From: Cyanidioschyzon merolae
Lineage: Eukaryota
Length of the DNA: 64,000 nucleotides
NCBI GenBank assembly: GCA_000091205.1
Contig: AP006500.2
Strand: one strand, 5' to 3'
A program made the position numbers and the translations under genes. The notes below the pieces were generated by a model. It made no database searches and was not told where the DNA came from. It saw only the letters and a program-made list of their open reading frames with translations. Shown here in pieces: positions 2,880 to 60,300 of this stretch (position 1 is its first letter; each line of letters starts with the position of its first letter).

Positions 2880-3200
2880 AGCTTCGACACTGAAAGTGCT
2901 GTCATACGGGCTTGTGGATTCTCACAGAACGCCAGGATGCTCGGTCGTCGTTTCCGATTGGCTGCTTTGACCTGCTGCCGCTGGAATTCGATACGTCACT
3001 GGAATGCAGATGATTCGCGACAACCTCGAACTGTTCTTCGTCCAATAAACGATATCATTATTCGATGCAAGTGTACGAGCGTCCGCTCCTCGAATTTCCT
3101 TCCTTGTGGCATGCCCATATCCTGCGTTCTTCATGTGATCGATCTCTCTCTGATTCAACCCATATCATAGGCAGAATACTTCGCAATAATGGATTGATGC
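2880..3200. repeat. Degenerate partial copy of dispersed repeat family R4 (the sequence that forms the inverted-repeat arms at 33.9-37.8 kb)
   Basis: Read by eye, 2985-3100 matches the right-arm segment 36600-36720 (ctggaattcg...gattcgcgac...aaataa..atatc.ttattcgatgca). The antisense ORF 2922-3158 repeats the arm-ORF peptide ...ASNNDI.Y..K...R.SRI...PV..RIPA... Confidence 0.45.
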
Positions 3201-5419
3201 GAAACAACTCGGTTTCGATCCTTGATGACTTGTTCGCAAGCTCATGCCGAATGTTCACTGTACCTACCATCTTAAATATGCGATTTCGTTCCAAATGCAG
3301 ATGCTGCTGTATCTGGAGCCGTTGACGAAACGGGGCTCCACAACGCCAGCATACCTTTCGTGACACACGCCTCCGGTGGATCGTGTTTCTTTTGTTTGCG
3401 TAGATACTGGTCTTGGACTCGAGGTTTCGTCATCGCAACGATTGCTTGCAGTGGACCGTTCGATTTCTCTTTTTCCACAGCTGAGAGCGTAAATGGATCG
3501 AAAGTTCTCGTCTTCTACGTATCTGGATTGTATTTCCGGTACTTGTCCTATCCGGCGCATCATCCTGTTCGGTAAATCCTTTATTGAATGCAGCAGATTT
3601 CGCTTTCGCACATAGCGGACAGCAGACACATAGTGCGGATCACCCAGAAGAAGCCCTTGGTCTAAGGGTACAGCACCGAGCGTGGAAACGGAAAGGAGCA
3701 TCGAGGAGAGTCTTCTGCACCCGACAACGGTATTTACGGAGCGAGGAAGCAAGCGTTCGGGCCTCACGGCGGGCGGCGGCCACAGGAGCAGGATGAGGAG
3801 GTGCTGTTGACGTATACGAAACACACGACCACAATCGACTTTCATTGCTGTGACAGACCCCATCGAGGCTGTATTTAGAGAAGATCAACATGATCTGCGA
3901 GGCTTCGATTGCAACCATTGCTTGTGCATGAAATGTATCGACAAGAGCTGGATGCACTGAGATAGGGACATGAACGCTGCCATCAACATCCTTCGACTGC
4001 TGAGAATGGAACTAGAAGGACAGAGGACAACGGCGTGTTCACAAGTGGAGATAAGCGAGAGGCAAAGGCTGCGATCTGCTGGTGAACATTTACCGAGAGT
4101 TTAGGATCCACGCCCGAATCGCAGGGCCGGCTTCATTTCTACTCTGACATGGGCGTAGACTACATGCCAATAGCGCTGTCCGCTGGGCGTGGCGTGTTGA
4201 ACACCGCTACTCGCGAGCGATGAACAGATTCTCAACGGCAGTTTGCTTCACGTCATAGCAGACCAGCTACACGCACTATGGTTGCTGTTCCTTCAGCAGA
4301 GCAACAAGATTTATAACGAATGCAAACGATGCTTTCGAAAGACCGAGCGGATGCAAGATTCGTCAATCGATGACGATTCTGGTGCGTTATGCCGTCCTCC
4401 ATGGATTCATGGCTTTGGATCTTCTTCACAGCGTGATTTCCTGTCGCAACAGGCGGTCTCCGGAAAACATCATGATCGTCGTGTTCTGGATACACGCCTG
4501 AAACAGGTGCCATTGTCCTCGGGCAAGGCGACTGCGCTGCATGCATTCTCGAGGAAAATGGGTATCTTGCCCGCGTCTACTTCACGAGGAGCCACAACTT
4601 CTCCAATCGGACGCCGTTTATCGATTCCCTGGACGCAAGTTGCAGCGTTCTCACCTCCCCGGATTCGATACGCAGTGCAGCGCGAGACATCAGGTCTACC
4701 AGAGGCATCGTTTGACCCTAACGACCTCTTTCCCAGAGGGCACGCTGTTCGTCGCCGTCTGGTGTGCACTGCGAATTGGCATGCACGGAGTCCGTCAACT
4801 TGCCACGAATATGCCGAATGAGGAAGCCTGAATGAACACTGCCCCAGTGATAGGCTGCATCGTCTCATGGTTGATTCGGAGCAAGCGCCGCACGTGAGTT
4901 TGCTGGAGCACTGCATTCGAAACTTCGTAAACGGATGCGCGCGGCTCTGGTCCTAAGCGGGCTGCCATCGACGCATTCTTCGATGCACAGCGGGGACGCT
5001 TTGCATTCACAAAGCCACGAATGAGCACTCGTTCACGCAGCCAGGTTCCCACTGCACAAAAAGGCGTTCCTGCATCTCTCCGAGACCGCGCCTGTGTTTC
5101 GAGAAGAGTTTCCGAAGAGACTCTCCTTGCTTGTTTTGCTTTCGATGTATCCGTGAATTTAAAGCTGCAGGTTTCCCGCCATGCGCGCACAATTTATCCC
5201 GTGAACAGGTACGAGCATCTCTGTACTTGGTGGACCATCGAAGTATTCACCTAGCTATCCTTTCGGGCGCAAGTTCTTGCCAGCCCACGTTTTTCATGAC
5301 TCATGATCGGTGCGTTCAACCACATGCCCTGGTACGCCAACCTCGATTCCAGGAGATCCTGGATCGAAGCGTCACTATCGTCACACCATCACAGAGAGAA
5401 GCGCTGTGTACCGGCCCTG

Positions 5420-6130
5420 AACAGATTCAAACGCCATGAAGCATTCTGCGTCGAGAGCACAGAAACGAAATGCTACCTAGCAACGAGATCAGAATTTCTT
5501 TCCGTCTCTACGGTTGGCATTGAAAGGGGGAATGGTTTTCCGTATTTTCGAAAGTTTACATTTTTTAGGCAGAAGATCCAGCGAGCTGGACGGGTCTGCC
5601 AGGCCAGTGCTTCATGTGCCTCTGCTGGGACAGGTGCGGTGTCGAGACCTGAGCAACTCGTCCGCAACGCAGTTCTTTCCGGATTTCGGAGCTGGTAGAA
5701 TGTGTCTGGGCGCTGCCCTGATTGCGATAGTCTGCTAGAATATCGCTTCGCGCTGCCGCAGGAATCAGGTCCGGCTGCGCAGATTGCTGGCTCCCAGTAT
5801 GATCATGAATCCCAGTCCTGTGACTAGTGAACCACACCTCGATCCGACGCTCTCTGTTGTATGGTAAATATGCTCTGTCTTCATCTCACATCTGCAACGT
5901 CGCTGCAAGGACTATGGCAGGTGCAGCAAGGCGGGTATGCGGCGCACTATAGAACATACAACACGACCAGTAAATCCGAGATCAAGTCTAGGAAAATAAA
6001 CTTGAAGGTAAGGTGCAACATCACTGACGCTTTCTCGTTTACCATTATCCATCCCGCAAACTGGAATCCCGTATCAACGGAAACGTTTTGTCAAACAAAA
6101 CAATTGAGGTCGTCTTGCCGTCGCTGATTC
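5420..6130 (+). repeat. Partial copy of the Fanzor-unit 5' module (spacer plus R2), no adjacent intact Fanzor ORF
   Basis: 5420-5700 aligns with 26640-26930 (agaaacgag.atg...aatttctttcc..tctacggt.ggc...ttcgaaagtt.ac...gcttcatg). 5700-6130 aligns with R2 at 26930-27350 and with the reverse complement of 57040-57560 (tag.atatcgcttcgcgc.gccgcag...ggtatggtaaa...tagaaca...cccatcccgc...ggaaacg.t.tgtca). Confidence 0.5.
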
Positions 6131-6286: not shown

Positions 6287-7378
<1,092 letters not shown>

Positions 7379-10791: not shown

Positions 10792-10884
10792 GGCCAGTTA
10801 GCGTGCGGTTGGCTGTACTGGAGCAGCGTCCTTTTTCGACAGCGTACTAGTGACACACAAACAGAACTCACTACACCGACACAG

Positions 10885-12130
10885 CGAATGCCTTCCAAGC
10901 GCCAAACGCTGTATAGGCGGTGTTTAGGAGTGGCGAGCGGTGCGCCGCCCGCAACTGACTCTGCGTCTGCCCAACAACGTGCAGACGCCTCCTAGTCTTT
11001 CTAGACCGGCCACCTATGAATGGGTTCAACTTCTTCCGGTATTATTCGACCTTGAGAGGTTCCTTCACAGGGTAAGTTCGCGTCAGCTCTGCGGGTCTCT
11101 TCTGCATCACCGCATATCTCCTTCTATTGATAGCAACGTGAAGGCCTCGATGCACAAACTCCATGCATACATCACCGCTGGTTGAATTCATCAGTGCAAG
11201 GATTCCTCGACGGCGTGCCCTGTGTGCCACTACAGTCTCGGTATCGCCCGTCGGGCAAACATCTTTTCCTGACCATCTCGCCTCTTCTTGTTCCTCGTAT
11301 CACTTGCTCTTCTTCGCGCGAAGAATCGGCGAGGAGTTTTTCCGTTTTTTTTCCGGCAGCCGGCGATGCCAGCTCTCTAGGATCCCCAATTTGCGTATTG
11401 AAATTTTTCCCTTACATTTTTTCTTCTTCGAATGAGCGCACGTCGAACGCATCTGCTATGAACCACGAAAGAGCATTGAATGTCAAACACCAGGAAGTAA
11501 AACACATTCGAGGTGAAAGACGTGAACAGGTTGCATAGAGGGCGCTGGGCGCAACACCCGTGCATGAGTCGCACAACTGTACAATCGTGTATGTTTAGGA
11601 ACTATTATGTTCTACGTGCTAGGCACCGCCGCCGTCGCCAGTGTGCGCATGCCGCAACGCATACAATACCTCCGCGGGGTATGACGCTCTCGAGCAGCGC
11701 AATGCCTATCGTCGGTGCTCGCAGTGGACGCTTTCGACTGAAATGCGGCGCATCCTACGAGGGCCTGAATTCGTTTCCGCATAGGCGTATCGATCCGAGT
11801 CTACAGCGAGTCTAGCTTCTCTTCCAGGAGCGGTAGGTCGCTGGACAATGCACTCTCGACGCTGATCATGCGTGGCTCTGGTGAAAAGGTGTATGCGACC
11901 TGGGAGCCTGCCTCAGAGGGAACGGGCGATGTTCCCACTGAATTTTCTTCATCAGGATGCTGTGGACGCAGAGGAGCACGGTCTGCTTCGCAATGCTTCT
12001 GCTGGGCTCACCAGCACGAGTCACATCTTCGAGAGGGTGCTCAGTGTGCACCAGTGCCGCCCAGCTCAAACAATTGAGTTGCTCGCTATGATTTCACGGG
12101 TTCTGGGGATGTAGCCGGTTGCGGATAGCT
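10885..12130 (-). mobile_element. Internally deleted (non-autonomous) Fanzor-family element with its right end (RE), a C-terminal coding remnant, an N-terminal remnant, and degenerate spacer and R2
   Basis: 10885-11045 matches the conserved 3' non-coding region of copies A and B (gtgcagacgcctcc.agtcttt..gaccggccacc). 11045-11295, minus strand, encodes a remnant ...ETVVAHRARRRGILALMNSTSGDVCMEFVHRGLHVAINRRRYAV... homologous to the copy-A C-terminus, with RuvC-III degraded (RDFNAA to RGLHVA). 11295-11560 matches the N-terminal/NLS region of copy B 57950-58150. 11560-12100 is weaker homology to the spacer and R2. Confidence 0.55.
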
Positions 12131-19189: not shown

Positions 19190-19440
19190 AGGAGGTGGTG
19201 GTGGTTGCGGAGACAGCACGCTATACTATTCAGGTAGGTAGGTACGCTCTCGGCACACCGGGAGATCCAGAATGCGTCGAGGCCATTGCTGGATATGCCC
19301 ATCTTAGAACGAAAAGAGAAGGACAGCACGCTATACGATTCAGGCAGGTAGGTACGCTCTCGGCACACCGGGAGCTCCAGAATGCGTCGAGGCCATCGCT
19401 GGATATGCCCATCTTAGAACGAAAAGAGAAGGAGTTCTTC
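19190..19440. repeat. Tandem duplication, ~110 bp x2
   Basis: cagcacgctata..attcagg.aggtaggtacgctctcggcacaccgggag.tccagaatgcgtcgaggccat.gctggatatgcccatcttagaacgaaaagagaagga occurs twice, starting near 19214 and 19324. Confidence 0.6.
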
Positions 19441-20559: not shown

Positions 20560-21000
20560 CGAGCGATGCAGGTTATCTCGATTCGTACGACGGTACGAGT
20601 TCTAGCGGCAAGGCGTCGAAGAAGCCTCCCCGAAAATACGACCGAGAATGCTGAAACCACGCATGTATCCGTTCGTCTTTATTGATGTTTTTCGATTCCC
20701 GAAGTTGTCCATTTGAAACCAAGGATTCCTCGAACTCGTACCCTCTCTGTGCCACTACAGTCTCATTGTCGCTCCGTCAGACAAACACATTTTCTCGGCA
20801 ATCTCCTCCCCTCTTCTTCTTCTTTCCCGTCACTTGCTCTTCTTGGCTCGACGGTCGCCCAGAAGAATATTATTTTCGATTTTTCCTGCAGCCGGCCGCA
20901 CAGGGCCTCCAGGATCACTTACTTTTATGTCCATAATTTTCCCTTGGATTTTTTATCTCTTCAATTGAATACATTCTTTAGACCCTTAGGTGAGAACCTT
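20560..21000 (-). mobile_element. Second internally deleted Fanzor-family derivative; same deletion junction as 10885-12130, more degenerate
   Basis: 20740-20990 aligns base-for-base in pattern with 11220-11470 (…aaggattcctcga…ctgtgccactacagtctc…cctcttctt…cacttgctcttctt…ccggc.gccgg…ttttcccttggatttttt…), spanning the junction between the N-terminal and C-terminal regions. The 3' portion at 20560-20700 is a weak match to the RE. Confidence 0.5.
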
Positions 21001-21048: not shown

Positions 21049-21420
21049 TCATCGTATGGTGAACGCTTGCGCGATTCGCCCAGTGGAGCGATCATTATGT
21101 TTCACGATAGAAAACATTCGTTCGATGGCATTGTACCACAGAGTGTACGGAGGAATGAAAAGCAGGTCCATGTTGGATCGAACCAGCAAATGCTCGAACG
21201 TAGGGGTAATAGTGAAATACCACGCAGTCCAATAGAAGGACATCGTCAGACGTCAGGGAAAAGTCTTCTAGGACTCGATAAAGTGGGGTTGTTGTGTGAG
21301 CCTTCTCTACGAGAGAAACTTAGGCCGCCAAATAAATCCACTGCAGTTAGAATAGATGATGTCGTCCCTTTTTCGAGTTCGATTGTACGTACATCGTGCT
21401 CCCTGCTCCGCGAGTACACA
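21049..21420 (-). pseudogene. Degenerate Tc1/mariner(IS630)-like DDE transposase fragment
   Basis: Minus-strand ORF 21049-21243 encodes ...FEHLLVRSNMDLLFIPPYTLWYNAIERMFSIVKHN..., resembling the Tc1/mariner C-terminal signature (…H.S…FLE.NNIELL.WPP.SPDLNPIEN.W…K). Another frame upstream reads ...DDIIYSNCSGFIWRPK..., resembling the first D/E block (V.WSDES.F). No intact ORF remains. Confidence 0.35.
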
Positions 21421-24270: not shown

Positions 24271-24600
24271 CTACGAGTGCTGCGCAGAGTCAGCGGATCT
24301 GACGGGAACGCCAGGAAACTCTCGCTTGAGATGTTTCCATTCGGGCCGATCCGTGCTTTTCGACTCCGCCATATCGTGCGCAACGAGCAGATAGATGCCG
24401 TACGGAACCAAGACTCCAAAGAGCAACGCGGTACGAATGTTCCGCGGGGTGAAACGGAACCGCTCCTCTAGAGTCTCCCGTCCAGCAACCCAGGCTTCCA
24501 CGTAAGGATTCTTCTTCACTTGCATAGCACCCATTCTTGGCCGATGTCTGCTTGAAAACGCGACTCTGAGCTTATCAAGAGCAAGAATAACCTCGGACAA
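24271..24600 (-). CDS. Small single-TM protein resembling NADH dehydrogenase [ubiquinone] 1 beta subcomplex subunit 4 (NDUFB4/B15)
   Basis: ...MGAMQVKKNPYVEAWVAGRETLEERFRFTPRNIRTALLFGVLVPYGIYLLVAHDM... resembles NDUFB4 (NPAL.RWAYART...F.PTPKNSLMGALCGFGPL.FIYYIIK). The likely start is an internal ATG (MGAMQ), not the alternative-start codon used by the ORF track. Confidence 0.4.
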   Translation of the reverse strand: MSEVILALDKLRVAFSSRHRPRMGAMQVKKNPYVEAWVAGRETLEERFRFTPRNIRTALLFGVLVPYGIYLLVAHDMAESKSTDRPEWKHLKREFPGVPVRSADSAQHS

Positions 24601-24614
24601 ATCGGGTACACGAA

Positions 24615-27350
24615 CGTCTTACAAGATAAACGCTGCTGCGGCCAGAAGTGTACAGTAGTGGCGAGAAACGCGCCCTAGACAAGACCTCTCCAAGTGACGT
24701 GCAGACGCCTCCCAGACTTTTTGGACCGGCCACCAACTACTGATTCCATTTTTTTCTCATATTAGTCCACTTTGAGAGGTTCTCCCACAAAATTCTCTCG
24801 TGTTCAGCTCTGGAGGTCTCGTCTCCAACACCGCACATCTCCTTATATTGACAGCGGCATTAAAGTCTCTGTTCACGAATTCCATACGTTTCTTGCCATC
24901 ATTGGTTGTACTTACTAATGCAAGTATTCCTCGAACTTTCGCTCCCCTTTCCATTCGCTCTACCGTCAGCGCCCCGTACGTTTTCATATCCTCAGGGATC
25001 CGCTGGCACTTTTCCATCTCCACTCTCTGAAGTGTATATCCCAACTCATGGTGTTTATAGAATGTTCGAAACTTATCTTTTGGTATCGTAACGAAACGTC
25101 GTGCCCACTCCTTGTACGTTCTTGTCGTTGGGGCTGGGGTACACCCTTTTTGGGTCACCCAGCGCCCTGCTCCGTACGCTACTACCAGCCTGTGACTCTT
25201 GTCGTCCTCCAAGGCGCTCAACTCATTAAAGAACTTGGCGAATGCACGCTGCTTCCCACTGTATAGATTCATACGCAGACGAGCCCAGCGGGGCTTTGAA
25301 TATTCTTTCCACATCTCCTCGTCATGAGCAGCCTGGGTTTCCATGAATTCCCGAAAGGCTCGAAAAACCGCCCCGCGGTTTGTCACTTTGCTGAACTCCT
25401 CACGGATATCGAACTCCGGGCTGATTTCTTTCAATGGGCCATGAAGGACGCTGGAGTTGATAGTCACAAAATGTGACTTGACGTTGCATAACGGAACGAC
25501 ATTGAAGCGCTTCCCCATTAGGGCAGCCTTCCGTCTCTCCCACTCCTCATTTTCTTCCTCATCCCGCATCATCTCCGCCTTGCGTTTGAGTTCTCGGTCC
25601 AAAAACACGAAATACGGCAGGATGAGGCGAAAGTATCTTTCCTTATATTTTTTCAACTCTGATATCTTTTCTGCTGGATTAGCCAGCCCAAGTACAAGAC
25701 GATCCTCTTGAAAAAGCGCACGGATTACAGAAGCTTCACTCGTATTCTCGTTTGACACTTTCTTGTCGACAAATTCGATCTCATCTTCATGCTGGCCATT
25801 GTTTTTGATACCATTGATAATCGCCCATATTGCTTTGCGAGAGAAGACCGGGTACAGCGCAAACACGGCGCGTATCATGAAACGTTCGAGGTTCATCGTC
25901 GAATGGTTCTTCAGGTTCGTGATGTACTTCATCGCCCCGTATGTGCAAATACGCGAGTCACCCTTGTATCGAGTACCCTCGAGGCTGTAAAACGGACGTT
26001 TTTCGTGAAGAGCGTGAACCCGCTCATTTTCCCTGCGCGTTTCCCCTGTGCCAAACATCAGCTGGCGAGTAGAGGTCTTGTCGAAAAACTCGTCTGGAAT
26101 CTCGACTGTTTCCATGTGCGTCACGTTGCGATACATCTCCCTCGCCAAATGCATCAGTCCTGACGACGCCTTAACAATGCTCTTGGAGCACGAGTCGACA
26201 CGGTTGCGGATGGCGTCTCGCAACTTTTCCTTGTACGAATCCTTCACACGTTTAAGAAGACAGGCTTTCGCCACCATCTCGTCGTACTGTTGCCTTTCGT
26301 ACAGCTTGTTCGTCTTCTCTTGTACCTCTGGACTCTGTACTGATTGTCGTCTTTTTCTGGCAGCTGGCGACACTGCGCCTCCAGGATCCTCTACTTCCTT
26401 TTCTATACGTTTCCTTTTTGTATTTGTTTTTTTTTTCTTGAAAAAGAGCGCATTTTTGAACGCTTCTTCTACAAACCAGCAAAAATAACTTGACCCCAGT
26501 CTGTTGAGGGTTAAAACGCAATCGAACTGAAAACGATGCTTTGCTACGACTACAACGCAAACACATCTTTTTCGGTGGAGCAAAACTCTATATATCAGGA
26601 TCGCGTTTCCCTTCCACAGCGACATTTACGTCGTGCCTCGTGAGTGCCAGTTCTCGAGGTGCGCGTATCGACCGCGCCATGGATAAAAGAATAGAAACGA
26701 GTCATGAAGTAGCAGCTCGATAACAATTTCTTTCCCCTCTACGGTAGGCGTTAGATGGGGAAAGTTTCTAAGCTTTCGAAAGTTCACCTTAGAGGCGGAA
26801 AAGCGCGCGAGCGGGACGAATTTCCCAGTCTCATGCTTCATGCTCCCTCCAGTGCCCAGCGCTGTAGCGAGATATAAGCAGCTTGTCCGAAACGCAGTTT
26901 ATTCTTGGACTCTGAACGGGTAGCCTGCGTCTGGTCGTCGCGCTGGTCCCAGTGGACTCCTAGCGTATCGCTTCGCGCAGCCGCAGCCGGTAGGTCTGTC
27001 CGCGCCGTTTCCAGGTTCCCAGAATGATAACGAATCCCGACCCCGTATCAGATGAACCCTGCCTCGATCCGGCACCCTCTGTGGTATGGTAAAGCCTTTC
27101 TGTCTCCGTGCTGCATCCGTTCCAGCGGTAGAAGCGCCACGGCGAGTGCTCAAAGCAGGTAATCGGCGCATGATAGAACATTCGAAACGACCGGTGCACC
27201 CGAAAGAATACACCAGTAATGGAACTTGGAGGTAGTTGCCTTATGATGGACAATTACATGAATCCTAATACCCGTCCCGCAATCTGGTATCCCTTATCAA
27301 TGAAGACGTTTCTTCATCGAAAAAAGATCAGCGGTACTGCTTCGAGCAGC
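24615..27350 (-). mobile_element. Fanzor/TnpB-like element, copy A: RE, 622-aa ORF, ~380-bp conserved spacer and ~0.45-kb 5' module R2
   Basis: Conserved along its whole length with 57040-60300 in inverted orientation. The 3' non-coding block 24615-24757 matches 60095-60300 and 10885-11045. The spacer 26550-26930 and R2 26930-27350 match the reverse complement of 57040-57940. Confidence 0.6.
24757..26625 (-). CDS. Fanzor/TnpB-like (OrfB_IS605-type RuvC) protein, intact 622-aa ORF, copy A
   Basis: C-terminal RuvC-III signature ...KKRMEFVNRDFNAAVNIRRCAV... (RDxNAAxNI, about 24847-24885). N-terminal lysine-rich NLS-like tract FFKKKKTNTKRKRIEKE. Collinear with the frameshifted paralog at 57950-60095. 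Relative to that paralog it lacks, in frame, the ~130-aa segment carrying the RuvC-I-like strand. The true start is uncertain because the ORF extends ~75 nt past the conserved 5' boundary of the element. Confidence 0.7.
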   Translation of the reverse strand: MSLWKGNAILIYRVLLHRKRCVCVVVVAKHRFQFDCVLTLNRLGSSYFCWFVEEAFKNALFFKKKKTNTKRKRIEKEVEDPGGAVSPAARKRRQSVQSPEVQEKTNKLYERQQYDEMVAKACLLKRVKDSYKEKLRDAIRNRVDSCSKSIVKASSGLMHLAREMYRNVTHMETVEIPDEFFDKTSTRQLMFGTGETRRENERVHALHEKRPFYSLEGTRYKGDSRICTYGAMKYITNLKNHSTMNLERFMIRAVFALYPVFSRKAIWAIINGIKNNGQHEDEIEFVDKKVSNENTSEASVIRALFQEDRLVLGLANPAEKISELKKYKERYFRLILPYFVFLDRELKRKAEMMRDEEENEEWERRKAALMGKRFNVVPLCNVKSHFVTINSSVLHGPLKEISPEFDIREEFSKVTNRGAVFRAFREFMETQAAHDEEMWKEYSKPRWARLRMNLYSGKQRAFAKFFNELSALEDDKSHRLVVAYGAGRWVTQKGCTPAPTTRTYKEWARRFVTIPKDKFRTFYKHHELGYTLQRVEMEKCQRIPEDMKTYGALTVERMERGAKVRGILALVSTTNDGKKRMEFVNRDFNAAVNIRRCAVLETRPPELNTREFCGRTSQSGLI

Positions 27351-33907: not shown

Positions 33908-35505
33908 ATTGGTGTCAGCATAAAATGGAGCAGGTCCACGAATACTGGCTAGCTCTCTAAAAAATGGGCCTCTTCTCCTGGCCGTCAGCGCCAGCCACTG
34001 TGGGATTTTTCCGTGACTGCTTCTTGTTTTATGTTTCTTGTATCTGAAATGAAAAACCGCGGTCTGTCCTTTTACTCTAGATCGGTTGTCACTAGTCGAT
34101 GGATATTGAGGAACACGTCCAAGCGCCGATGTGGCCGATTCAAGCTGTTATCGACGAATATCATAGACACTCGATCGTTGTGAGCTACGCTTCACTCGCC
34201 ATTTTCATGTTATTTATACAGAGCCCCAGTGCGTCCTTCGCGGCGGTGGCGCTTAACTCTTTTCAGATGTTCCTATACGCGCACCAAACATCCGCGGGCT
34301 TCTCCTCCTTCTTCTTCGAGCACCGCCACGTGACACGGGAACGCTTGCTTCGTCCCTAACCACACGAACTTGACGGGTAGCGTGGGGTTCCTTCGATGTC
34401 TCACTCCGTTTCCGCGCCTCAGTGCTGTACCCTAGGATGACGGGCGTCGTCGTCGGCAATCTCCTCGGCGAGTGTGCTGTTCGCAGGACACGAAAGCGTA
34501 GGCTGCCCCATTCGGCTGCGGATTTGTGGAACGCGATATTGACCATGACGAAACAGTGTCTGGAAGGAAACCCGGGCCTGACGAAGCACTCGAGAGATCC
34601 AGTTCCATCTACGCTCCGTTCGTGCAGCGGATTTGTGGAACGCGATACTGACCATGACGAAACAGTGTCTGGAAGGAAACCCGGGCCTGACGAAGCACTC
34701 GAGAGATCCAGTTCCATCTACGCTCCGTTCGTGCAGCGGATTTGTGGAACGCGATATTGACCATGACGAAACAGTGCCTGGAAGGAAACCCAGGCCTGAC
34801 GAAGCACTCGAGAGATCCAGTTCCATCTACGCTCCGTTCGTGCAGCGCGGTGAAGCAGCCTCCGATAGAAGCGATCGCTGCGATAACGCAAGTCCGAGTC
34901 CAAGACACTTCTCCATGCAAACCGAAGACACGCGGGCCTCTACGAGCATACCCCGTGCAGCGTCGCACGCTGTTGTTGGCTCGCGCTCCACCGATAGCGT
35001 CAAAACGGGTAGGAATTGTTGTTCGGTCGATTTCAGCTAATGGAGGCGACAAGGTCAGTGAGCTTACGTTATGAGCTTGTACATACGACGTTCAGGGACA
35101 GCATCGACTTTTTCGTTTCCACGTCAATCCACCAGCGCCAACGCCTGCACCAACGAGTTGCTTTGAACGAGAACGATCGAAAACTTGAGCAGTGTCTGTG
35201 CTGCGAGCCTGCTATACGTCGGGCAAGGACAGGTGCGGCGGCTTGTACGCATGCATCGAATAACGATATCCGTTATTTGAGGAAGCCTTGTCTGAGGGCG
35301 TCGCGAATCGTCTCGACCCCAGTGCCGTCACGAATTCCAGCAACGACGAATTGAACGGGAGACACTGCAACAGAGACCGACCGAGACTCCTACAACTGCG
35401 TATCGGTTCGTATGCTCTTATTGCTGAACTTCAAATGTTGAGGCCGTGCTTCTAAAAAATCTTCGGAAAACTATCGAATGGTTAGAATGGAGCGAGCGGC
35501 TCAAT
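33908..35505. repeat. Left arm of large inverted repeat (R4 family element) with internal 109-bp tandem sub-repeats
   Basis: Near-identical reverse complement of 36425-37812. Arm ORFs 35016-35354(+) and 36589-36927(-) differ at 2 of 112 aa; 34099-34359(+) and 37366-37626(-) are almost identical. The outer ends match (ggtctagattggtgtcagcataaaatggagcaggtccacgaatactggctagctc…). Confidence 0.85.
34506..34860. repeat. 109-bp tandem repeat, ~3.3 copies, inside the left IR arm
   Basis: Unit cgtgcagcggatttgtggaacgcgata.tgaccatgacgaaacagtg.ctggaaggaaacc.gggcctgacgaagcactcgagagatccagttccatctacgctccgtt. Identical ORF starts at 34633 and 34742 (period 109). The right arm carries about two fewer copies, which accounts for the ~210-bp difference in arm length. 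Confidence 0.7.
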
Positions 35506-36424: not shown

Positions 36425-37812
36425 ACTCAGATGGAAGATGCAGCCGCTCGCTCCATTCTAACCATTCGATAGTTTTCCGAAGATTTTTTAGAAGCACGGC
36501 CTCAACATTTGAAGTTCAGCAATAAGAGCATACGAACCGATACGCAGTTGTAGGAGTCTCGGTCGGTCTCTGTTGCAGTGTCTCCCGTTCAATTCGTCGT
36601 TGCTGGAATTCGTGACGGCACTGGGGTCGAGACGATTCGCGACGCCCTCAGACAAGGCTTCCTCAAATAACGGATATCGTTATTCGATGCATGCGTACAA
36701 GCCGCCGCACCTGTCCTTGCCCGACGTATAGCAGGCTCGCAGCACAGACACTGCTCAAGTTTTCGATCGTTCTCGTTCAAAGCAACTCGTTGGTGCAGGC
36801 GTTGGCGCTGGTGGATTGACGTGGAAACGAAAAAGTCGATGCTGTCCCTGAACGTCATATGTACAAGCTCATGACGTAAGCTCACTGACCTAGTCGCCTC
36901 CATTAGCTGAAATCGACCGAACAACAATTCCTACGCGTTTTGACGCTATCGGTGGAGCGCGAGCCAGCAACAGCGTGCGACGCTGCACGGGGTATGCTCG
37001 TAGAGGCCCGCGTGTCTTCGGTTTGCATGGAGAAGTGTCTTGGACTCGGACTTGCGTTCTCGCAGCGATCGCTTCTATCGGAGGCTGCTTCACCGCGCTG
37101 CACGAACGGAGCGTAGATGGAACTGGATCTCTCGAGTGCTTCGTCAGGCCCGGGTTTCCTTCCAGACACTGTTTCGTCATGGTCAATATCGCGTTCTACA
37201 AATCCGCAGCCGAATGGGGCAGCCTACGCTTTCGTGTCCTGCGAACAGCACACTCGCCGAGGAGATTGCCGACGACGACGCCCGTCATCCTAGGGTACAG
37301 CACTGAGGCGCGGAAACGGAGTGAGACATCGAAGGAACCCCACGCTACCCGTCAAGGGCGTGTGGTTAGGGACGAAGCAAGCGTTCCCGTGTCACGTGGC
37401 GGTGCTCGAAGAAGAAGGAGGAGAAGCCCGCGGATGTTTGGTGCGCGTATAGGAACATCTGAAAAGAGTTAAGCGCCACCGCCGCGAAGGACGCACTGCG
37501 GCTCTGTATAAATAACATGAAAATGGCGAGTGAAGCGTAGCTCACAACGATCGAGTGTCTATGATATTCGTCGATAACAGCTTGAATCGGCCACATCGGC
37601 GCTTGGACGTGTTCCCCAATATCCATCGACTAGTGACAACCGATCTAGAGTAAAAGGACAGACCGCGGTTTTTCATTTCAGATACAAGAAACATAAAACA
37701 AGAAGCAGTCACGGAAAAATCCCACAGTGGCTGGCGCTGACGGCCAGGAGAAGAGGCCCATTTTTTAGAGAGCTAGCCAGTATTCGTGGACCTGCTCCAT
37801 TTTATGCTGACA
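36425..37812. repeat. Right arm of large inverted repeat (R4 family element)
   Basis: Reverse complement of 33908-35505. The inner end at 36425 (gccgctcgctccattctaaccattcgatag) mirrors 35470-35505. Confidence 0.85.
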
Positions 37813-38049
37813 CCGGTGTAACACGAGACACTTGCCACTGTCGCGCTTCTATCCGCGTGCATGTACGTATGCTCGAGTTACCCGCCCCGTTGCCGGCGAC
37901 GTAATGAACAAGCTCACTTGGCGCACACCTAAAGACTCCCAAGCATCACGCTTTGACAGGCTCTATTATACCACACTCTTTGAAAGAAACAGCGCCACAC
38001 ACAGTATCGACGAGATATCTCGTTGCTATGACCTGCGCGGCGAATACAG

Positions 38050-40782: not shown

Positions 40783-42239
40783 ACAGCCGCGTTAGAGGAC
40801 GAGTATTGGCCGTTGCAGTGTACGGCCTGGGCAACAGTGACCTACAGTGCAGAAAGAATCTTGTCCGAAGACGCAGCGAGAAAATCTAGAAACGTACTGG
40901 TCTGAGCTTGCTGAGAAACAAACGCAACTCGAACGAGATGCGTCCAGTAGCACTCGCGCTACCAGTTTTCGGGCAACGGAACGCTGCACCTCCGGAGCCG
41001 CTTCCAGGTTCTACCAGCAACACCAACACCTTGTAAATTTAGACCTGTGCTCGTCCGCAGCGTCAAGGCACGAATCCCCGACTGCCAGGCTTGGGTCCCC
41101 GGTGTTACGGCACGGAGGCGAGGTCGTCCACCGGTGTCTCCTGGGAAATCCTGTCTCACGCTAGCCCATACGCCCTTGTCAGTGTAAAAACGGGAACAAG
41201 TCGACGAATACCGGCGCAGACACTCATGGATGTGTCGCTTATCGATGTCATCAACACGTGTGTGCGCAAGCTTTTTCTGTGAATGCCTCCTTTTCCTCCC
41301 ATACATCTCCGGCTTTCAACACGGTAGTATGCTTTCTTTCCCATGTTTACGGTTGTCAGCAGTCGAGGAATGTTGATGGCATCTTTAAACTACCGATTTC
41401 TCCGTTTCCGGTGAAGGTCTGCGTATTTCATGTACAGGCCAAAATTGCGATCTATATTTCGCTTACCACATTCATCTTCGTTGTACACAGCCTCGGTGGG
41501 CTTTTCTGGCGATGACTATTTGCTATACACAGGCACGCTGATCTATCCATCCAGCTGAGGCGCTCCTTGGAACGCTGCCCCCATAGCGTATGAAGCCAAG
41601 CTTCATCGCCCGGTACACACTCTTGATGGGTTCAGAGAACTATTCTGGACGCCCTATTCGTTTTCCATGCCAGACGCGGCACCTCACCACCAGAGGCTTC
41701 CTCATGGGATTATCCTGTCGGCGAGTGCGCTGCCAGCTGCACATGCCAGAACAGGCTGTTCCGTTCGATCGAGCACTTGTGGAACGAGATTTTCTTCTTG
41801 ACAAATCAAGTACTGGAAGAAAAATTCCAGCAGGGCATCGTTTTGATCGATATCACTCCGTCTACGCCCTCTGGGTGCAAAGCGGTGACGCACGCGCCAC
41901 TGTTCATCGATCGCTGCGATGCCTCAAGACCGAGTCCAGGACCCGTGTTCATGCAAAAAAGAGAAACGAGCATCTCTCGGAGCGTACCCAGCGCCAGGTG
42001 ACATGCTCCTGTCGATTGCTGTTTCGTCGAGAGCTAAAAAGAGAAGTGGATTCCCCTCTCAACGGAATCGATTATTTGACGTGACAAGTTCAGAGAGCTC
42101 TTGGTATGAGCTCGTGAACCAGCCGTCATGGTTGCTTTGGGACAGAAAAATTTCAAGATTTGAAGAATACGTGATCTAGGCATTCAACTGGTTCATAAAG
42201 ACGAAGCGTGCAGTCTTCCATGTATGCATTGGATGGATG

Positions 42240-49560: not shown

Positions 49561-51169
49561 GTCTCTTGGAACGTCAAGTCATCCGGAGGGACTAGTTGAT
49601 CTGGTTTCGTGCTTGCTGGCTGTGCGGGCATATGCAGGAGGCCGCAATTGATGCATCAACCCCACAGCATGAGAAAAACACTCCTGGATGCAACAGCGGA
49701 AGTGACCATTCTTACTCGTAGGCAAGCGCGCAGAGATGTCGTTCAGGGATTTCGGATCGTCGACGCTGACTGCGAATCCCCGATGAAGCGATTGATATCC
49801 GCGTCCATCATTGCGCATCGCACTGTGAGGCGTCACCAATCACCACCTTTGCTTCTCTTCACGTATACTAGTCCGCCAGTTCGTGTGATGCTGTGTGGTG
49901 CCGACTGCCTACCCTGAGCGCCGACGAGGACGTACACGGTGCCGCAGCGGATGCTGCACGGAGGCAAAGCGGCTTCGCCATACCCGTGAGAACGTCGGCT
50001 CTAAATGTGGTTTATTTGACGCGTCGTCAGGTATCTCCCTCATGTCGTGCCCTGACAGTCACTGTATGCGGACCTGACTTTACATCAAGATGCGTTGCAG
50101 AAAAGAAGCTGTCAGGAGGAATCCTGAAAACCCCGAGTCTTCGCTTCCCTGTATTGGGAGGCATGCAATGCGGTCTTGCGACTCGGGGGCCATTGCGCTG
50201 CACTCAGCAGCCAGGAGATGCACGAAACGCCGGGCGCGCATGTTCATGCAGTTCGCGGCTCTTTTTCGCCTAGAAAGACGAATAAGAGTTTGGTGCCAGA
50301 TAGCGCGCATTTTGGTCCAACCAGTGGGCCTCCAATTGTCAGTTCTGCACCCAAAATAAGCGAACGCTCATGAGCATCTATAGTGACATCCACGAGGTGT
50401 GATTGCTCGAACAGCCAGCTTCGTTCCTGTGTCCGAACGCGAACACTGCAAAAGCGAGTCTCGCCGAGCATTGGGAGTTACGTCTCCCCTGCAGAAGCAG
50501 TATGATTCCCTGCGAGCATGTAATTTTTCGATGCAACACAAGGCCCGGACGTGCTAGACTTCACCGATTCGCTCTTTAGCGAGCCAGACGGTTCCCATGG
50601 GAACCTCTGACCACCCCAATGACTCCCGCCAAACGTTTCATGTCTCTACTCGGTGGTTCTTCTAATGGGATGCGAGGCCAACGTTGAAGATCCTGTTCTT
50701 TCGAAATCGGCATTTGCATTCTTTGCCTTGAACCGTTCGTTAGAGATGTCGAGAAAAGAGTCAGTCCCAGAAACCAACTGGTATATATCCACTCCAAAGC
50801 CATACTTGAGGAAAATCTGCCTCCACTAGACCCAAACGCTTTTTCGATACCTTGGGATGCACGCCATCATCCGGTTGAGCCGGGGGCGCGTGCTGGGCCT
50901 CTTGGCCCTTGTACGACGCGCTGCAGTCTGCTGCAATGACTTCCAACGGGGGTGTATAGGATTTACATCCGAGAGCTTCCGTGCTGGGTGCTCTGCCGAG
51001 CATCCCGACACGATTCGCATCGACCTGTTGACTGGGGTCTGCATTCGCGAAGCGAGTGCGAGGCTCATGCCCCACCATTCGACGCCCCAGGTGACCGCCT
51101 TGATGATGCACATCCTAATTGACCCGATGCAGACTCCCAGCGACATCCCTATGGGTCCGATAAGAACCT

Positions 51170-51455
51170 GCATGCACGAGCTGAGCGTTTCTTGATCTTG
51201 GCAATCTCCTCTCCTATATATACACACTTTCATCCAGTGTGCATGCACGAGCTGAGCGTTTCTTGATCTTGGCAATCTGCTCTCCTATATATACACACTT
51301 TCATCCAGTGTGCATGCACGAGCTGAGCGATTCTTGATCTTGGCAATCTGCTCTCCTATATATACACACTTTCATCCAGTGTGCATGCACGAGCTGAGCG
51401 TTTCTTGATCTTGGCAATCTTCTCTCCTATATATACACACTTTCATCCAGCATCG
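51170..51455. repeat. 71-bp tandem repeat x4 with TATA-like core, immediately upstream of the oxidoreductase gene
   Basis: Unit gcatgcacgagctgagcg.ttcttgatcttggcaatct.ctctcctatatatacacactttcatccagtgt. Copies start at 51170, 51241, 51312 and 51383, giving an exact period of 71 with 1-2 substitutions per copy. Confidence 0.85.
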
Positions 51456-51462
51456 ACGTGAG

Positions 51463-52728
51463 TTGTACCAGGGCGCGGCGGGATTCGGCGTTGCCTCGCG
51501 AGCATCGCACTATCCGAAGATCGGCACTCGAGCTGCGCGTCCGAGGTGCTCCACAGCAGCTTCTAAGGTTCTGGCACAGCCTACGATGCGTATGGAACAG
51601 CCAGCAGCGTTTCTGAGTGGCAAACTACAACCCTTGTGCCTAGATCGCAAGTTCCAGTTGCGCGTGAGCGGGTCACGGCAACAGTTTCGGGGCCGCCGCC
51701 GACCCATTCTCGTCGCCCGGGTCGGGATCGGCGTCATCGGTGCAGGCCGCATAGGACAGGTACATGCAGCAACGATAGCTCGTCTGATGAATGCAGAGCT
51801 ACGAGGTATTGCTGATCCAATTGAAGCAGCTGGGCGTAAGGTGGCCGAGAGTTTCCAGACAGCGTACTTTCCAGACTATCGTACGCTGCTAGAGGACCCC
51901 GATGTACAGGGTGTCGTCATCGGCTCGCCAACGCCGTTTCACGCGGAACAAATGATAGCTGCAGCCGAAGCCGGCAAGCATATATTTTGTGAAAAGCCTA
52001 TCAGCAACGATCTCGCGACGATCGACCGTTGTTTAGAGGTGGTACGCACCAGCGGCGTCAAACTCCTGGTGGGGTTCCAGCGGCGCTTCGATAGTAACTT
52101 TAGCTACGTACGTGACCAGATTGAGCGTGGCACCATTGGGCAAGTGCGTATGTTTCACATCCATTCAAGAGATCCGGCGCCACCTCCGGCGGAATACTTG
52201 GCGAAAAGCGGAGGTATTTTCCTCGACATGTGTTCCCATGATTACGATATGGCGCGTTTTGTGACGGGCCAGGAAATCGAGGAGGTTTACGTGGTTGGCA
52301 AGGCCTTCGATCCCGAGGCACAGGCCGCAAATGATCTCGACACCCACATAACGGTACTGCGGATGTCGGGCGGGGTCATGGGCACCATCGACAACTCTCG
52401 TCGTTGCGCATACGGCTACGACCAGCGTATCGAGGTGTTTGGCTCCGACGGTTCGTTAATCGGTCAAAACAAGAGCAAGCACTCCGTAGTAGCCGCCGGT
52501 CAAGATGGGTATCATCATGGACGACCTTTTGATTTCTTTATGGATCGCTATCTGGAGGCGTACGGGAACATCATGACCGCATTTGTGCAGATGATCGAGC
52601 GCGGCACAGACCCCCCTGTCTCGGGGTTAGACGGTCGCGCGCCGGTGCTCGCTGCGCTGGCCGCAGCCCGAAGTGTCAAGGAGAATCGACCAGTGAAACT
52701 CAGCGAAGTCGATATACGCATGCGCTAG
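51463..52728 (+). CDS. Gfo/Idh/MocA-family NAD(P)-dependent oxidoreductase (myo-inositol 2-dehydrogenase-like)
   Basis: Rossmann N-terminus ...IGVIGAGRIGQVHAATIARL...GIADP..E.AGRKVAE.......Y...LLEDPDVQGVVIGSPTPFHAEQMIAAAEAGKHIFCEKPIS... Typical IolG/Gfo C-terminal alpha/beta domain. The ~75-aa N-terminal extension may be a targeting peptide, or the true start may be internal. Confidence 0.8.
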   Translation: MYQGAAGFGVASRASHYPKIGTRAARPRCSTAASKVLAQPTMRMEQPAAFLSGKLQPLCLDRKFQLRVSGSRQQFRGRRRPILVARVGIGVIGAGRIGQVHAATIARLMNAELRGIADPIEAAGRKVAESFQTAYFPDYRTLLEDPDVQGVVIGSPTPFHAEQMIAAAEAGKHIFCEKPISNDLATIDRCLEVVRTSGVKLLVGFQRRFDSNFSYVRDQIERGTIGQVRMFHIHSRDPAPPPAEYLAKSGGIFLDMCSHDYDMARFVTGQEIEEVYVVGKAFDPEAQAANDLDTHITVLRMSGGVMGTIDNSRRCAYGYDQRIEVFGSDGSLIGQNKSKHSVVAAGQDGYHHGRPFDFFMDRYLEAYGNIMTAFVQMIERGTDPPVSGLDGRAPVLAALAAARSVKENRPVKLSEVDIRMR

Positions 52729-55700
52729 GAATGAATGCAATCGCCCCTAAACCAGTATCAGGTTCAGAACTGGAACGCCGAACTGTTCGCTCTGTTGCTT
52801 CCTTGCAGTGCATTCCGAAATTTTGCTTGGACGTACAGACTCGACATTCGATGGGCAGCAATGGGAGCCTTTGGGCGCACACACAGTTTTAGGATTCTTC
52901 GTCGTCATTTCCGAGTGGCACCTTCGACGCTTTGCTGCTGCCATTGGTTGCACGTGACCTTTACCAAGGTGACTCGCCACGTTATTCACCAAGAATTCGT
53001 CATATAACCCGTATCACTATCCAGTTCAATCGCACAAATTTCGACACTTCTCCTTTCGAAAAGTTGGGTATGCTCCAATCAAATACTCCTGAACCTTTAG
53101 GTGTCTATCTTACAGAGCAGCTCGTGGGCGCTGCCATTCGCACCGCTGGATTGATGGGGAAAAACACCCGAACGTCTTCCTTTTGACGCCTTGTGCACAT
53201 GTACATGCTGAAAGTTCACCGAAATTCTCATATTAGATACTTGATTCGTTTCGAAGGCCAAATTATTTTTTGCGGCAAGTAACGAAGCTGCATTCGGCAG
53301 CAACATGATATCTCTCACGGGATATGCTCCCAGAGGCTCCCGTCTATTTTGTTTGCAGGTAAAAGGGTCTTGGATTCAGAACTGATTCATCGCTGTGAAT
53401 GCTTCCAGCGGAGCATGCTTTATCGCTTGGCATGGAGCAGACGTCGAGGGATCGAAATTACGCAAGCGAACCTTCACCCTGGACTCCCTTCCGTTTCCTG
53501 GTTCATCGTGGGCAACATCACATTCCGGGGATTCTATCGAATGAAATGTTGTCCGCTTGTGTTTGCAGCGAACAGAGTACTCGCTGACGGGGTCGCCCCG
53601 AAGGAGCCCATAGCTGTAGGTTACGGTAGCGAGCGCGCAATCGGGTAAGAGAGTCTGTGAAAGCCCTCTGCATCCGTCCAGGGCATCTACGGGGCGATGA
53701 GGCAACCATTACGCGCCACAGGACGGCCCTAGGAGGAGGTCATTTGGTTTGCATATGGGAAGATTCGACCTCAACCATACGTGACCGCTGCAGAGGGCGC
53801 ACAGCAGCTGGATAAAATGAAACTGAAAGTGGCACGCGAAGGGTACACTCCAACTACCGCCTGTGCATGAAATGCGGCACTAGGAGCCGGAAGCTGCGAA
53901 ACTGAGACTTGAAGGCGCCAATCAGCCTCCTTTGACTGTTGAGAACAGGGCTGGGGCGAACGGAGAGACCGGCGTATTGAAAGCGGGAGATACGAGAGAG
54001 TAAATGAAGCAGTCGCTAAACAAACGCGCAAAGCTTGTTGTTGATGTCAGTGGAACGAGAACCGAACTTGAGCGTGGATGCCCCTGTTAGATGACCTCTC
54101 CTGTTTAGTTATACCGCGATGCCAAACAAAGACACGCCGAAACTTTGGTGACGAGAAATCCCGTAAGAAGACTGCGAATGTTTTGATGGAGTATTGGTAC
54201 GATGGCACATACTAATGTCTCTCGGGGACGCCATTGGATCCAAACTTTGGGGATCCTAGGCTCATCTAAGACGCCACTATCAGAGTAGGTCGTGCGGAAC
54301 GTGGTCGCGGTGCAAAGTACGAGCGCCATACGGCATGTACTCTGGGGAGCGTAGAGCGACGCGGTTCGAGCTCATGGACACGAGGGGTCTTCGAGATGAT
54401 TGTGCCATCATGTCATCTAACAAGATCCACAGTATATGCAGATTTGCGGATCATTACGCTTTCTGCTGGAATCCTGCGGCATTTCAGACCGCATACGGGT
54501 ATTCATATCCGTGAACAAGCTGCAAAGTCGATGAAAGTGGTTGCCGCAATGGGACTCCCAGCTCATAGACGCTCCTCGATCCGAGAGAAATGCCCATATA
54601 TCTCGTAGTTCGATACCCGATTGGCTGTTGGCGCAAATACGAGGTTGCTCACGTACCGTCTAGCGTTCGATCGTGCGTCCTCATGAGGATTTTATGCTGG
54701 GAAAGCCAGCACAAGCACCGCTCAGGCGAACCAGCCTGAGTTGGGCGCTCTATCCTCCGTCATTTTCATTTCTATTCAATTTGAGTGGATTCGCGGAGGC
54801 CTGCCAACAGACCTCTCAAGCTGCAAGCGGGCACGTTACACGTTGTGCGCCTCCACCACTGAGTCTCTCGGACACAGGCACTGTTGCGTTATTCAGGTAT
54901 GTGGGCATCGATACAAGCTTCGCAATACAGCGGCATGGACGTGCAACTGCGCCAAACGACGGCGCGGTAGCATTCCGCAAGCCCTGTTCAGCAGAGCGAC
55001 CAGCGCTAGGCTGTTCGCGCATGAGACCTGGCGCTTTCCTAAACCCCGAGACCTTCATGAACGTCATCCGTGGACAAGACGAGGTGCGCATCAATCGAAT
55101 AAATGTCGAGCCAGACGTATCCTGCGCCCGCAAAAACTGGATACACGGGCATCAATGCCTGGAAGGCTCCATGTGCGAGACTCCCGCTATTTGACGTCCG
55201 GTATCTCCGCTACCTCCGATTCTACGACGAATGCTGCGCGGTCAGTCTACAGGAAGTTTTTAACTCGGGCCCCGGATCCGATATAGACTGGACGCGAACC
55301 ATGTCAAATGCCTCGCCTGGAAAATGCCTGAGTGTCACCTTCGTCAAGTACCACGGACCGAGCGAGGCGCGTTTGCAAATGGTGAACTGGTTGCGAGTCC
55401 TTAACAGCTCCACCGATGACTAGCTAATCTGTCAACACTGGATACGCCTCAACCGCGCTCTTCGTTCCGAATTCTGATGAGCTTCGGCATACGTCAAGGC
55501 GATCAGGCAAAGCGTCTTCATCGGCTAAGGAACTGTACTCCAGAGCGGGGGCTCGCAATCGCTCGTTGCCCAACAGTCCAGCACGCGAACCTCAGAGGAT
55601 CAGCATTCCATGTAGAATTCAGAATGCTGGAGGCGGCGCGTAGATGAAGACTAGGCTAGATATAAGCACTCACATCCACAAACAGATGGAAACGTTTGCG

Positions 55701-60000: not shown

Positions 60001-60300
60001 GAGGTCTACTTCCGTTGGTGAGTACAACCAATGCCAAGAAACATATGAAATTCGTGAACCGAGACTTCAATGCCGCCAACAGTATAAGCAGATAGGCGGT
60101 GCTGGAGAAGAGGCCCCCAGAGTTGACCAGAGCCAACTTTCTGGGGCAACCTCTGCAGATGGCGCTGTACGAGAAGAAGCTGAAGCCAGTAGTAAATGGC
60201 CGGTCCAAAAACCCTGGGAGAATTCTGCACGCTGGCGTATATACATCAACGCTATCGGCTTGATGTGTGTGCGTTCGTTTGCTCGTTTTGCTGGCGGGAT
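57040..60300 (+). mobile_element. Fanzor/TnpB-like element, copy B: R2, spacer, full-length but disrupted ORF and RE
   Basis: 57040-57560 is R2 in reverse complement relative to 26930-27350. 57560-57940 is the spacer, the reverse complement of 26550-26930. 57950-60095 is coding. 60095-60300 is the conserved 3' block (…ccagag.tga.c…aacctct…cagtag…tggccggtccaaaaa.cctgggag…tctgcac…). Confidence 0.6.
57950..60095 (+). pseudogene. Fanzor/TnpB-like gene, copy B; retains RuvC-I-like and RuvC-III motifs; disrupted by stop and frameshifts
   Basis: Frame pieces 58582-59436, 59437-59892 and 59823-60095. RuvC-I-like ...[19 protein letters not shown]... at 59333-59356. In-frame TGA at 59434-59436. Frameshift near 59870. 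RuvC-III ...KKHMKFVNRDFNAANSI.... The N-terminal NLS-like region 57950-58210 (…QEKKKKKRE…) is itself split across two frames. About 60% amino-acid identity to copy A over alignable parts, estimated by eye. Confidence 0.65.

Follow-up and report, generated by a model that had tools for sequence, protein, structure and literature searches.

The window analysed here is a stretch of 64,000 nucleotides (nt) from contig AP006500.2 of Cyanidioschyzon merolae (assembly GCA_000091205.1), and the subject of this work is the 3′ block shared by the copies of a Fanzor transposon that lie within it. Fanzor1 proteins are eukaryotic TnpB-like RuvC nucleases with a split catalytic triad D...E...D, found in the motifs GxDPG, DEFRTS and NRDxNAAxNI. 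In TnpB and Fanzor systems the scaffold of the guide RNA (omega-RNA) extends from the 3′ end of the nuclease gene through the right end of the transposon, and the guide itself is taken from the flank. The initial annotation of the window, made from the sequence without database searches, proposed that a non-coding block of ~150 nt downstream of each Fanzor stop codon is at once such a scaffold and the transposon right end.

The host open reading frames (ORFs) of the window are intron-less eukaryotic genes, which encode an adaptin, KRR1, a PHD protein and a WD40 protein. The KRR1 protein (6323-7378) is identical to BAM82625.1 of C. merolae 10D, which assigns the window to that strain. The window copies are members of CMe-1A, a Fanzor1 transposon family of C. 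merolae known since 2013, when Bao and Jurka described ~150 copies with ~80% identity to a ~3-kb consensus, without inverted repeats, and left the termini and target-site duplications undetermined (PMC3627910). The 5′ 635 base pairs (bp) of CMe-1A also exist as a separate element, TE-N2_CMe (PMC3627910). The elements studied here agree with CMe-1A and TE-N2_CMe in organism, size (~3 kb), identity (~80%), the lack of obvious terminal inverted repeats and the presence of a 5′ solo segment, but the 2013 account predates omega-RNAs, and the right-end stem-loop, motif and hairpin and the dispensable C-terminal tail described below are not in it. The members of the family in the window are the following.

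24609-27334, minus strand: copy A of CMe-1A, delimited by homology to copy B and to metagenome copies, which runs from 27325/27334 to 24609.
24757-26625, minus strand: present ORF of copy A, 622 amino acids, ending with TGA at 24757-24759.
57143-60236, plus strand: copy B, stop-riddled, with the coding tail as far as ...GRILHAG and without the right-end module.
10877-11729, minus strand: 3′ fragment of a diverged CMe-1A copy (the "deletion derivative" of the initial annotation), with the last ~280 codons and the right end (nhmmer, 900-nt profile, E = 4e-97).
10879-10952, minus strand: non-coding right-end module of the 3′ fragment (covariance model, 17.4 bits, E = 0.026; fold z = −2.1).
5478-6102, minus strand: solo 5′ non-coding segment of ~625 nt, TE-N2_CMe-like and with the same left end, recognised by homology (PMC3627910).

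The identification of these copies as Fanzor is borne out by a profile of 13 relatives, which matches the Parasitella parasitica Fanzor1 (PpFz1) structure 9cf0 with E = 1.4e-16 and Guillardia theta Fz1 (GtFz1) weakly; single-sequence and Pfam searches with the family protein gave nothing above threshold. The triad motifs GADPG, DEFRTS and NRDFNAAINI are all present in full-length relatives (e.g. P0002), and are invariant in the alignment of the relatives. All three window copies (A, B and the 3′ fragment) are dead relics. Copy A is internally deleted relative to P0002, having lost the RuvC-I segment with GADPGNTNI; it is a pseudogene with an incomplete triad, and its ORF ends at the TGA at 24757-24759 because of a frameshift. 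The solo element ends, on its 3′ side, just upstream of the point where the Fanzor ORF starts in full elements. For comparison, 80 related loci were taken from hot-spring metagenomes; 73 distinct 3′ ends were aligned, and the codon statistics were computed on 61 copies. The most intact members are the metagenome loci L002 (4001-6259) and L011, in which 744-785 codons precede the RuvC-III motif.

When ~70 related copies were combined into a profile of the block, nhmmer matched copy A over 24825-24609 (E = 6e-59) and the 3′ fragment over 11103-10881 (E = 2.5e-30). The match to copy B, 60105-60233 (E = 4e-24), is restricted to the first ~130 positions (129) of the profile. A search with filters off, using a covariance model for the non-coding part, gives 24677-24605 with 44.5 bits (E = 3.5e-8) and 10952-10879 with 17.4 bits (E = 0.026), and no other credible match in the window. 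Copy A (24609-24757) and the 3′ fragment (10879-11045) therefore carry the shared 3′ block, as had been annotated, whereas the third assignment, 60095-60300 in copy B, is correct up to ~60236 only: positions 60237-60300 are unrelated to the block, and copy B thus lacks the terminus. The weak match that had been noted at 20560-20700 yields no signal, either by nhmmer --max or by the covariance model with filters off. What lies near it is a DDE_3 remnant (21100-21274), together with faint traces of Fanzor coding sequence (20702-20945).

The alignment of the 73 3′ ends defines where the element stops. Diversity is ~0.15-0.35 until ~60-68 nt past a shared TAG codon, and is then ~0.7, the level of unrelated sequence. 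The jump, from ~0.3 to ~0.7, takes place within a few bases, right after a hairpin, and is seen over ~50 independent insertions. The assignment of the block as the transposon right end is supported because conservation ceases abruptly at a structurally defined point in these insertions, and in copy A it places the end of the element at 24609, close to the 24615 proposed earlier. The features leading to this boundary, in the orientation of the gene, are given here for copy A.

24678-24803, minus strand: ancestral C-terminal coding tail, TRENFVGEPLKVD*YEKKMESVVGGRSKKSGRRLHVTWRGLV, whose frame is read by tblastn in ~70 copies.
24675-24677, minus strand: ancestral stop codon TAG, from the consensus of 73 copies and read directly in copy A.
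24660-24674, minus strand: stem-loop 1, GGCG-(variable loop)-CGCC.
24648-24659, minus strand: 12-nt motif, ACTACTGTACAC.
24609-24647, minus strand: terminal hairpin and right end of the element, where homology stops.
24589-24608, minus strand: flank directly 3′ of the right end, UACCCGAUUUGUCCGAGGUU, which varies in sequence between insertions.

The block had been taken as non-coding throughout, which applies only to its last ~66 nt. Its first ~80 nt (24678-24756 in copy A) are the decayed remainder of a C-terminal tail ending in ...GQPLKVELYEKKLEAVVGGRSKKTGRRLHVSWRRFV*, since most copies can be translated in the ancestral frame through 24678-24803. Nearly all copies have this tail free of frameshifts. 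The tail of copy A has been shifted out of frame by a +1 insertion near 24803-24806 (CTGAACACG versus TTGA-CCAG), and it carries a TAA at 24762-24764, where most copies carry Leu. An alternative genetic code or a mini-intron, considered for this TAA as it is common to copy A and the 3′ fragment, is unneeded, because the long ORFs are stop-free and most copies have Leu.

The codon statistics show how far the protein-level constraint extends. In the upstream coding region, diversity is 0.116, 0.091 and 0.248 at codon positions 1, 2 and 3, and 0.287 at four-fold sites, and the corresponding values for the tail are 0.199, 0.160, 0.218 and 0.225. Windows of 30 nt give a ratio between positions 1+2 and position 3 that is ~0.55 over NFVGQPLKVELYEKKLEAVV, within the coding range, rises to 0.72 over GGRSKKTGRR, and reaches ~1 over the last ten tail codons. 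The Gly and Ser codons of GGRSKK take all third-position bases between sub-families, which indicates that the stretch tggccggtccaaaaa...tctgcac is conserved as protein. This stretch, which the initial annotation had singled out, is the best-kept part of the block. It derives from ancestral coding sequence, GGRSKK.GRRLH, whose third positions are free. The main argument of the initial annotation, from higher conservation than in the coding sequence to a structured RNA, fails. The order of conservation is the reverse, with a diversity of 0.152 for coding, 0.192 for the tail and 0.295 for the post-stop sequence, compared with 0.287 at four-fold sites; within the window, copies A and B are 69.6% identical in the coding part and ~60% identical in the block. 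The basic patch of the tail, RSKKTGRRL, could be a nuclear localisation signal, as far as can be judged from its sequence.

Two codons of the tail have an excess of stops, in 11 and 7 rows out of 61, compared with 1-4 elsewhere, and the longest intact ORFs, those of L002 and L011, end at ...NFIG*, with TAA in place of Gln. Since these two most intact copies stop there, truncation before the tail is tolerated, and the tail is dispensable. In agreement with this, PpFz1 likewise ends just past the RPP...R segment in the profile alignment. The ~100 nt beyond the stop of L002 and L011 are still the best match to the tail consensus. A likeness of the tail to the 3′ non-coding ends of distant relatives (GGCGGTCGGTCC in L083; GTGGCC...GAGGCGTC in L085), seen by eye, found no support with nhmmer.

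The truly non-coding part of the block consists of the ~66 nt past the ancestral TAG (24609-24674), and comprises a stem-loop, the 12-nt motif and a terminal hairpin. The consensus of the right end reads TAG, GGCGCGTTTCTCGCC, ACTACTGTACAC and CGCCGGCGTCGTTCGACTTTCGAACGGCGTTGATGGTG, followed directly by the flank. The stems and the 12-nt motif are under selection: diversity is 0.097 in the stem of stem-loop 1 (p = 0.002 against the 0.287 of four-fold sites) and 0.13 in the motif (p = 0.006 against the same sites), whereas the loop of stem-loop 1, at 0.53, lies above neutral, and the terminal region is at 0.35. The motif and the preceding CC (CCACTACTG, 24653-24661) are complementary to CAGTAGTKG at 24733-24742. 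In well-kept copies the hairpin starts with the CAC of GTACAC and finishes with the last GTG, closing exactly where homology ends. It is kept in nearly every copy, and in a few of them the stem is quite different in sequence, namely in L009 and L023 (CCGGCGAG...CTCGCCGG) and in L014 (AACGTTTT/AAAACGTT). In copy A the terminal stem is degenerate (AGCGUUU / AGACGUU).

The terminal hairpin folds differently on the two strands. Over 49 copies its mean folding energy is −15.0 kcal/mol in the sense and −9.4 kcal/mol in the antisense orientation (Wilcoxon p = 1.7e-9). The sense fold is also more stable than that of flanking DNA (−15.0 versus −8.6 kcal/mol, Mann-Whitney p = 5e-14). Both p-values are inflated by the common descent of the copies. 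G·U pairs make up 150 of 669 pairs in the sense strand and 16 of 480 in the antisense strand, and on fixed columns 161 cells are G·U and 40 are A·C. The direction of this asymmetry is the one that a sense-strand RNA would give, unlike a duplex protein-binding site. Whole blocks of well-kept relatives fold far better than their shuffles (z = −4.7 for L017, −6.0 for L054 and −3.9 for L023), the antisense being weaker, and the block of the 3′ fragment has z = −2.1. At the left end, the first 40 nt have a mean of −5.6 kcal/mol and no strand asymmetry, so that a strong hairpin is found at the right end only. An IS605-like architecture with two hairpins was rejected on account of this weak left-end fold. 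A right-end-like hairpin module upstream of every left end was also considered; it occurs in some flanks only and is not general.

By its position and its architecture, an omega-RNA scaffold at the CMe-1A right end is plausible. We read the block, with moderate confidence, as the CMe-1A 3′ end, composed of the decayed coding tail and a right end of ~66 nt that, by analogy with known systems, most likely serves as omega-RNA scaffold. Transcription from the Fanzor gene would run through the right end into the flank. Such read-through is possible because the block consensus contains no UAAA poly(A) signal: in C. merolae this signal is UAAA in 93% of genes, with no other motif found (PMC8831791), and UAAA is not in the consensus of the 73-copy alignment. 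The read-through RNA would then be trimmed to an omega-RNA, with a scaffold of ~66 nt (24609-24674), possibly extended into the tail by CAGUAGUGG:CCACUACUG pairing, and a guide formed by the first ~15-20 nt of the flank, from 24608 downward in copy A (24589-24608). The same terminal sequence probably doubles as the DNA right end, and some copies keep a weak inverted match between it and the left end. Transcription, processing, binding and guiding are steps that we infer for the CMe-1A RNA from this analogy.

The left flanks were inspected for a target motif at 12 independent insertions (27325-27345, 57130-57143, 6102-6115 and nine loci), of which four have TGAT and nine have NNAT, the boundary being blurred by a T-run. 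With only 12 flanks, TGAT is a possible target motif or target-adjacent motif (TAM). A comparable motif, TTGAT, lies in the left flank of ISDra2, an IS200/IS605-type element. There the scaffold of the TnpB omega-RNA (reRNA) stems from the right end with its subterminal hairpin, and overlap with the 3′ end of the nuclease ORF is possible. The TGAT seen at 4/12 left flanks is reminiscent of the ISDra2 motif, but CMe-1A has no Y1 transposase and no matching hairpin at the left end, and its eukaryotic relatives are tied to DDE_3.

A further counterpart is SpuFz1 of Spizellomyces punctatus, which has a 75-nt scaffold and a guide of 14-15 nt, and for which RNA, TAM and cleavage were mapped experimentally (PMC10432273). 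As in that system, CMe-1A has a conserved non-coding segment between the Fanzor stop and the right end, followed by variable flank (75 nt there, ~66 nt here), and ORF-less "ghost" elements are found in both genomes (PMC10432273). The two differ in that Spu-1 has clear 30-nt inverted repeats, whereas CMe-1A has a G·U-rich hairpin and at most a vestigial repeat, and there is no detectable sequence similarity between SpuFz1 and the CMe-1A right end. In the solved Fz1 omega-RNAs (GtFz1, SpuFz1 and PpFz1) a first stem-loop is followed by one to three more, and the guide comes last (PMC11423790). The comparison with these folds that the initial annotation had suggested agrees in layout, as the CMe-1A order of stem-loop, motif and hairpin fits this arrangement. 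It does not agree in detail, as the conserved stem-loop 1 of the known RNAs has 7 bp (PMC11423790), compared with 4 invariant bp in CMe-1A (up to 6 in some copies), and the correspondence of stems is a guess. In the literature searched, no paper ties a C. merolae Fanzor to an omega-RNA. The protein and element families were already known; newly described here are the CMe-1A right end and its dispensable coding tail.

Several results weigh against an omega-RNA scaffold. The block of copy A folds no better than its shuffles (z = 0.01), and over the 60 nt past the stop codon diversity averages 0.295, no different from the 0.287 of the neutral proxy (p = 0.74). Constraint on synonymous sites is not significantly higher in the tail than upstream (0.225 versus 0.287, p = 0.09), so that there is no evidence for RNA-level constraint overlapping the ORF. 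The existence of a sister sub-family with a different right end, an inverted copy of the left end, points in the same direction, and Rfam gave no match up to E = 10 for 24300-25100 on both strands. The covariation analysis is also part of this. RNAalifold, applied to 50 MAFFT-aligned copies, returns only a 4-bp stem (stem-loop 1), with a covariation term of zero. On a MAFFT alignment of 32 sequences the proposed helices show no excess of pairing (81.2% paired versus 80.6 ± 0.5 in shuffles, 54/500) or of covariation score (0.113 versus 0.109, 137/500).

Different figures are obtained with an alignment of 45 distinct copies fitted to the model, in which changes on both sides of a pair number 38, versus 26 ± 3.8 in shuffles (2/500), paired cells are 73.5% versus 71.9% (4/500), and the score is 0.143 versus 0.126 (9/500). 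This alignment leans towards structure and the sequences are related, such that figures of this kind can arise without any structure, and for this reason they offer only modest support for the modelled helices. The long-range helix CAGUAGUGG:CCACUACUG appears in single-sequence minimum-energy folds (L017 and L054). Its covariation is not significant. The helix hardly varies, and A·C mismatches are frequent at one of its pairs. One clean compensatory case only was found (L008), and a 9-mer complement within 200 nt is expected by chance at ~0.08, so that in our model this pairing is kept as a possibility. Covariation is thus not significant on the MAFFT alignment and modest on the model-fitted one; a complete lack of compensatory changes and of a stable shared fold, which the initial annotation regarded as counting against an RNA, is not what was observed, but the positive case is not strong either.

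The non-coding end could instead be a DNA-level transposition signal only, that is, a degenerate right terminal inverted repeat or hairpin used by a DDE_3 transposase in trans, with no RNA role, which we consider unlikely. This idea draws on the distant relatives L084 and L085 (36-45% protein identity), where a DDE_3 transposase gene lies directly upstream of Fanzor, on one distant relative with 28-nt inverted repeats, and on remnants of DDE_3 (Tc1/mariner-type) genes detected by tblastn in the window itself, at 21100-21274 (minus strand, E = 5e-7), 53046-53436 (plus strand, E = 1e-4) and 41942-42046 (minus strand, E = 0.3). The right end of the sister sub-family, GTCGTGAAACGTTTTCTTTCCATTGA, is an inverted copy of the common left end (score 32 versus a shuffle maximum of 31, in one copy), and in copy A 24613-24629 is 76% complementary to 27294-27310, the sole inverted pair that links the termini, L074 and L041 being similar. 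Over seven elements, however, left-right inverted similarity is marginal in three (p = 0.014-0.05, copy A included) and absent in four, and Bao and Jurka too found no inverted repeats (PMC3627910). A double-stranded site would not be strand-asymmetric, whereas here G·U exceeds A·C (161 versus 40) and the sense strand folds 5.6 kcal/mol better; the left end, moreover, has no comparable hairpin. CMe-1A itself has no transposase gene. A DNA signal at this position also fits an omega-RNA, as the SpuFz1 omega-RNA spans its right inverted repeat. The terminal hairpin may thus be derived from a right inverted repeat and may still function as an end at the DNA level. The sister sub-family is represented by L053:124-400, L045:3790-4019 (minus strand), L028:5835-6010 and L009:4830-5018 (minus strand); its ORF stops earlier, after ...RRRL, and it has terminal inverted repeats where the main family has a hairpin.

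It is still less probable, in our view, that the right end has no function, its conservation reflecting common descent and its hairpin and motif being inherited from a dead element. The equality of mean post-stop diversity and four-fold sites would be explained in this way, as would the pseudogene state of the window copies, the z of 0 for the block of copy A and the lack of significant covariation in MAFFT columns. Simple descent does not account for the unevenness of the diversity, with stems (0.097, p = 0.002) and motif (0.13, p = 0.006) below neutral and loops (0.53) above it, for hairpins that persist with replaced sequences (L009, L023 and L014), or for the excess of G·U on one strand. 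Purifying selection is also evident in the coding part of these copies, which implies that the lineages were active during their divergence.

That the block is an element of the 3′ untranslated region of the Fanzor mRNA, i.e. a 3′-end processing or stability signal and not a guide scaffold, is hardly credible: although it is sense-strand specific, lies directly past the stop codon and has a motif containing UGUA, the signal of 93% of C. merolae genes, UAAA (PMC8831791), is not in its consensus, and the structure ends exactly at the transposon boundary, not at an internal processing site. The UGUA-containing motif was likewise discarded as a poly(A) signal, as C. merolae uses UAAA.

One may also speculate on how the right end of CMe-1A arose, although we give the following scenario little credence. 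The main CMe-1A lineage would have lost the right inverted repeat and the DDE_3 transposase of a Tc1/mariner-like ancestor, gained the sense-only, G·U-rich hairpin in place of the repeat and multiplied to ~150 copies with Fanzor as its sole gene, its spread or retention being driven mainly by Fanzor/omega-RNA-guided cutting and homology-directed copying with a TGAT-like TAM, and not by a transposase.

If the scaffold reading is true, the right end would provide a native guide RNA, with a compact scaffold, for a Fanzor1 from a thermo-acidophilic and genetically tractable red alga. The termini of CMe-1A, left undetermined since 2013, would be settled as well, and the element would offer a natural case of a nuclease ORF that has grown into the region beside a guide-RNA gene and can yet be truncated before it. 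For this window alone little changes, as the copies are dead and the arrangement is as Fanzor biology predicts.

Other repeats are present in the window. A second, very degenerate TnpB/Fanzor-like C-terminus (...CNHCLCMKC...DRDMNAAINILR) lies at ~3850-4010 (plus strand) and 41353-41400; its DNA is unrelated to CMe-1A, and its match to Pfam Cas12f1-like_TNB is far below threshold. Repeats related to it are found at 2980-3447, 36602-37074 and 53339-53404. Positions 33911-35501 and 36442-37814 form a 99%-identical inverted repeat with arms of ~0.7-0.8 kb, which includes a 109-nt tandem repeat (34515-34847). A 71-nt tandem repeat in four copies (51169-51521) reaches into the start of an ORF for a GFO/IDH/MocA oxidoreductase, and a 110-nt tandem repeat is present in two copies at 19212-19431.

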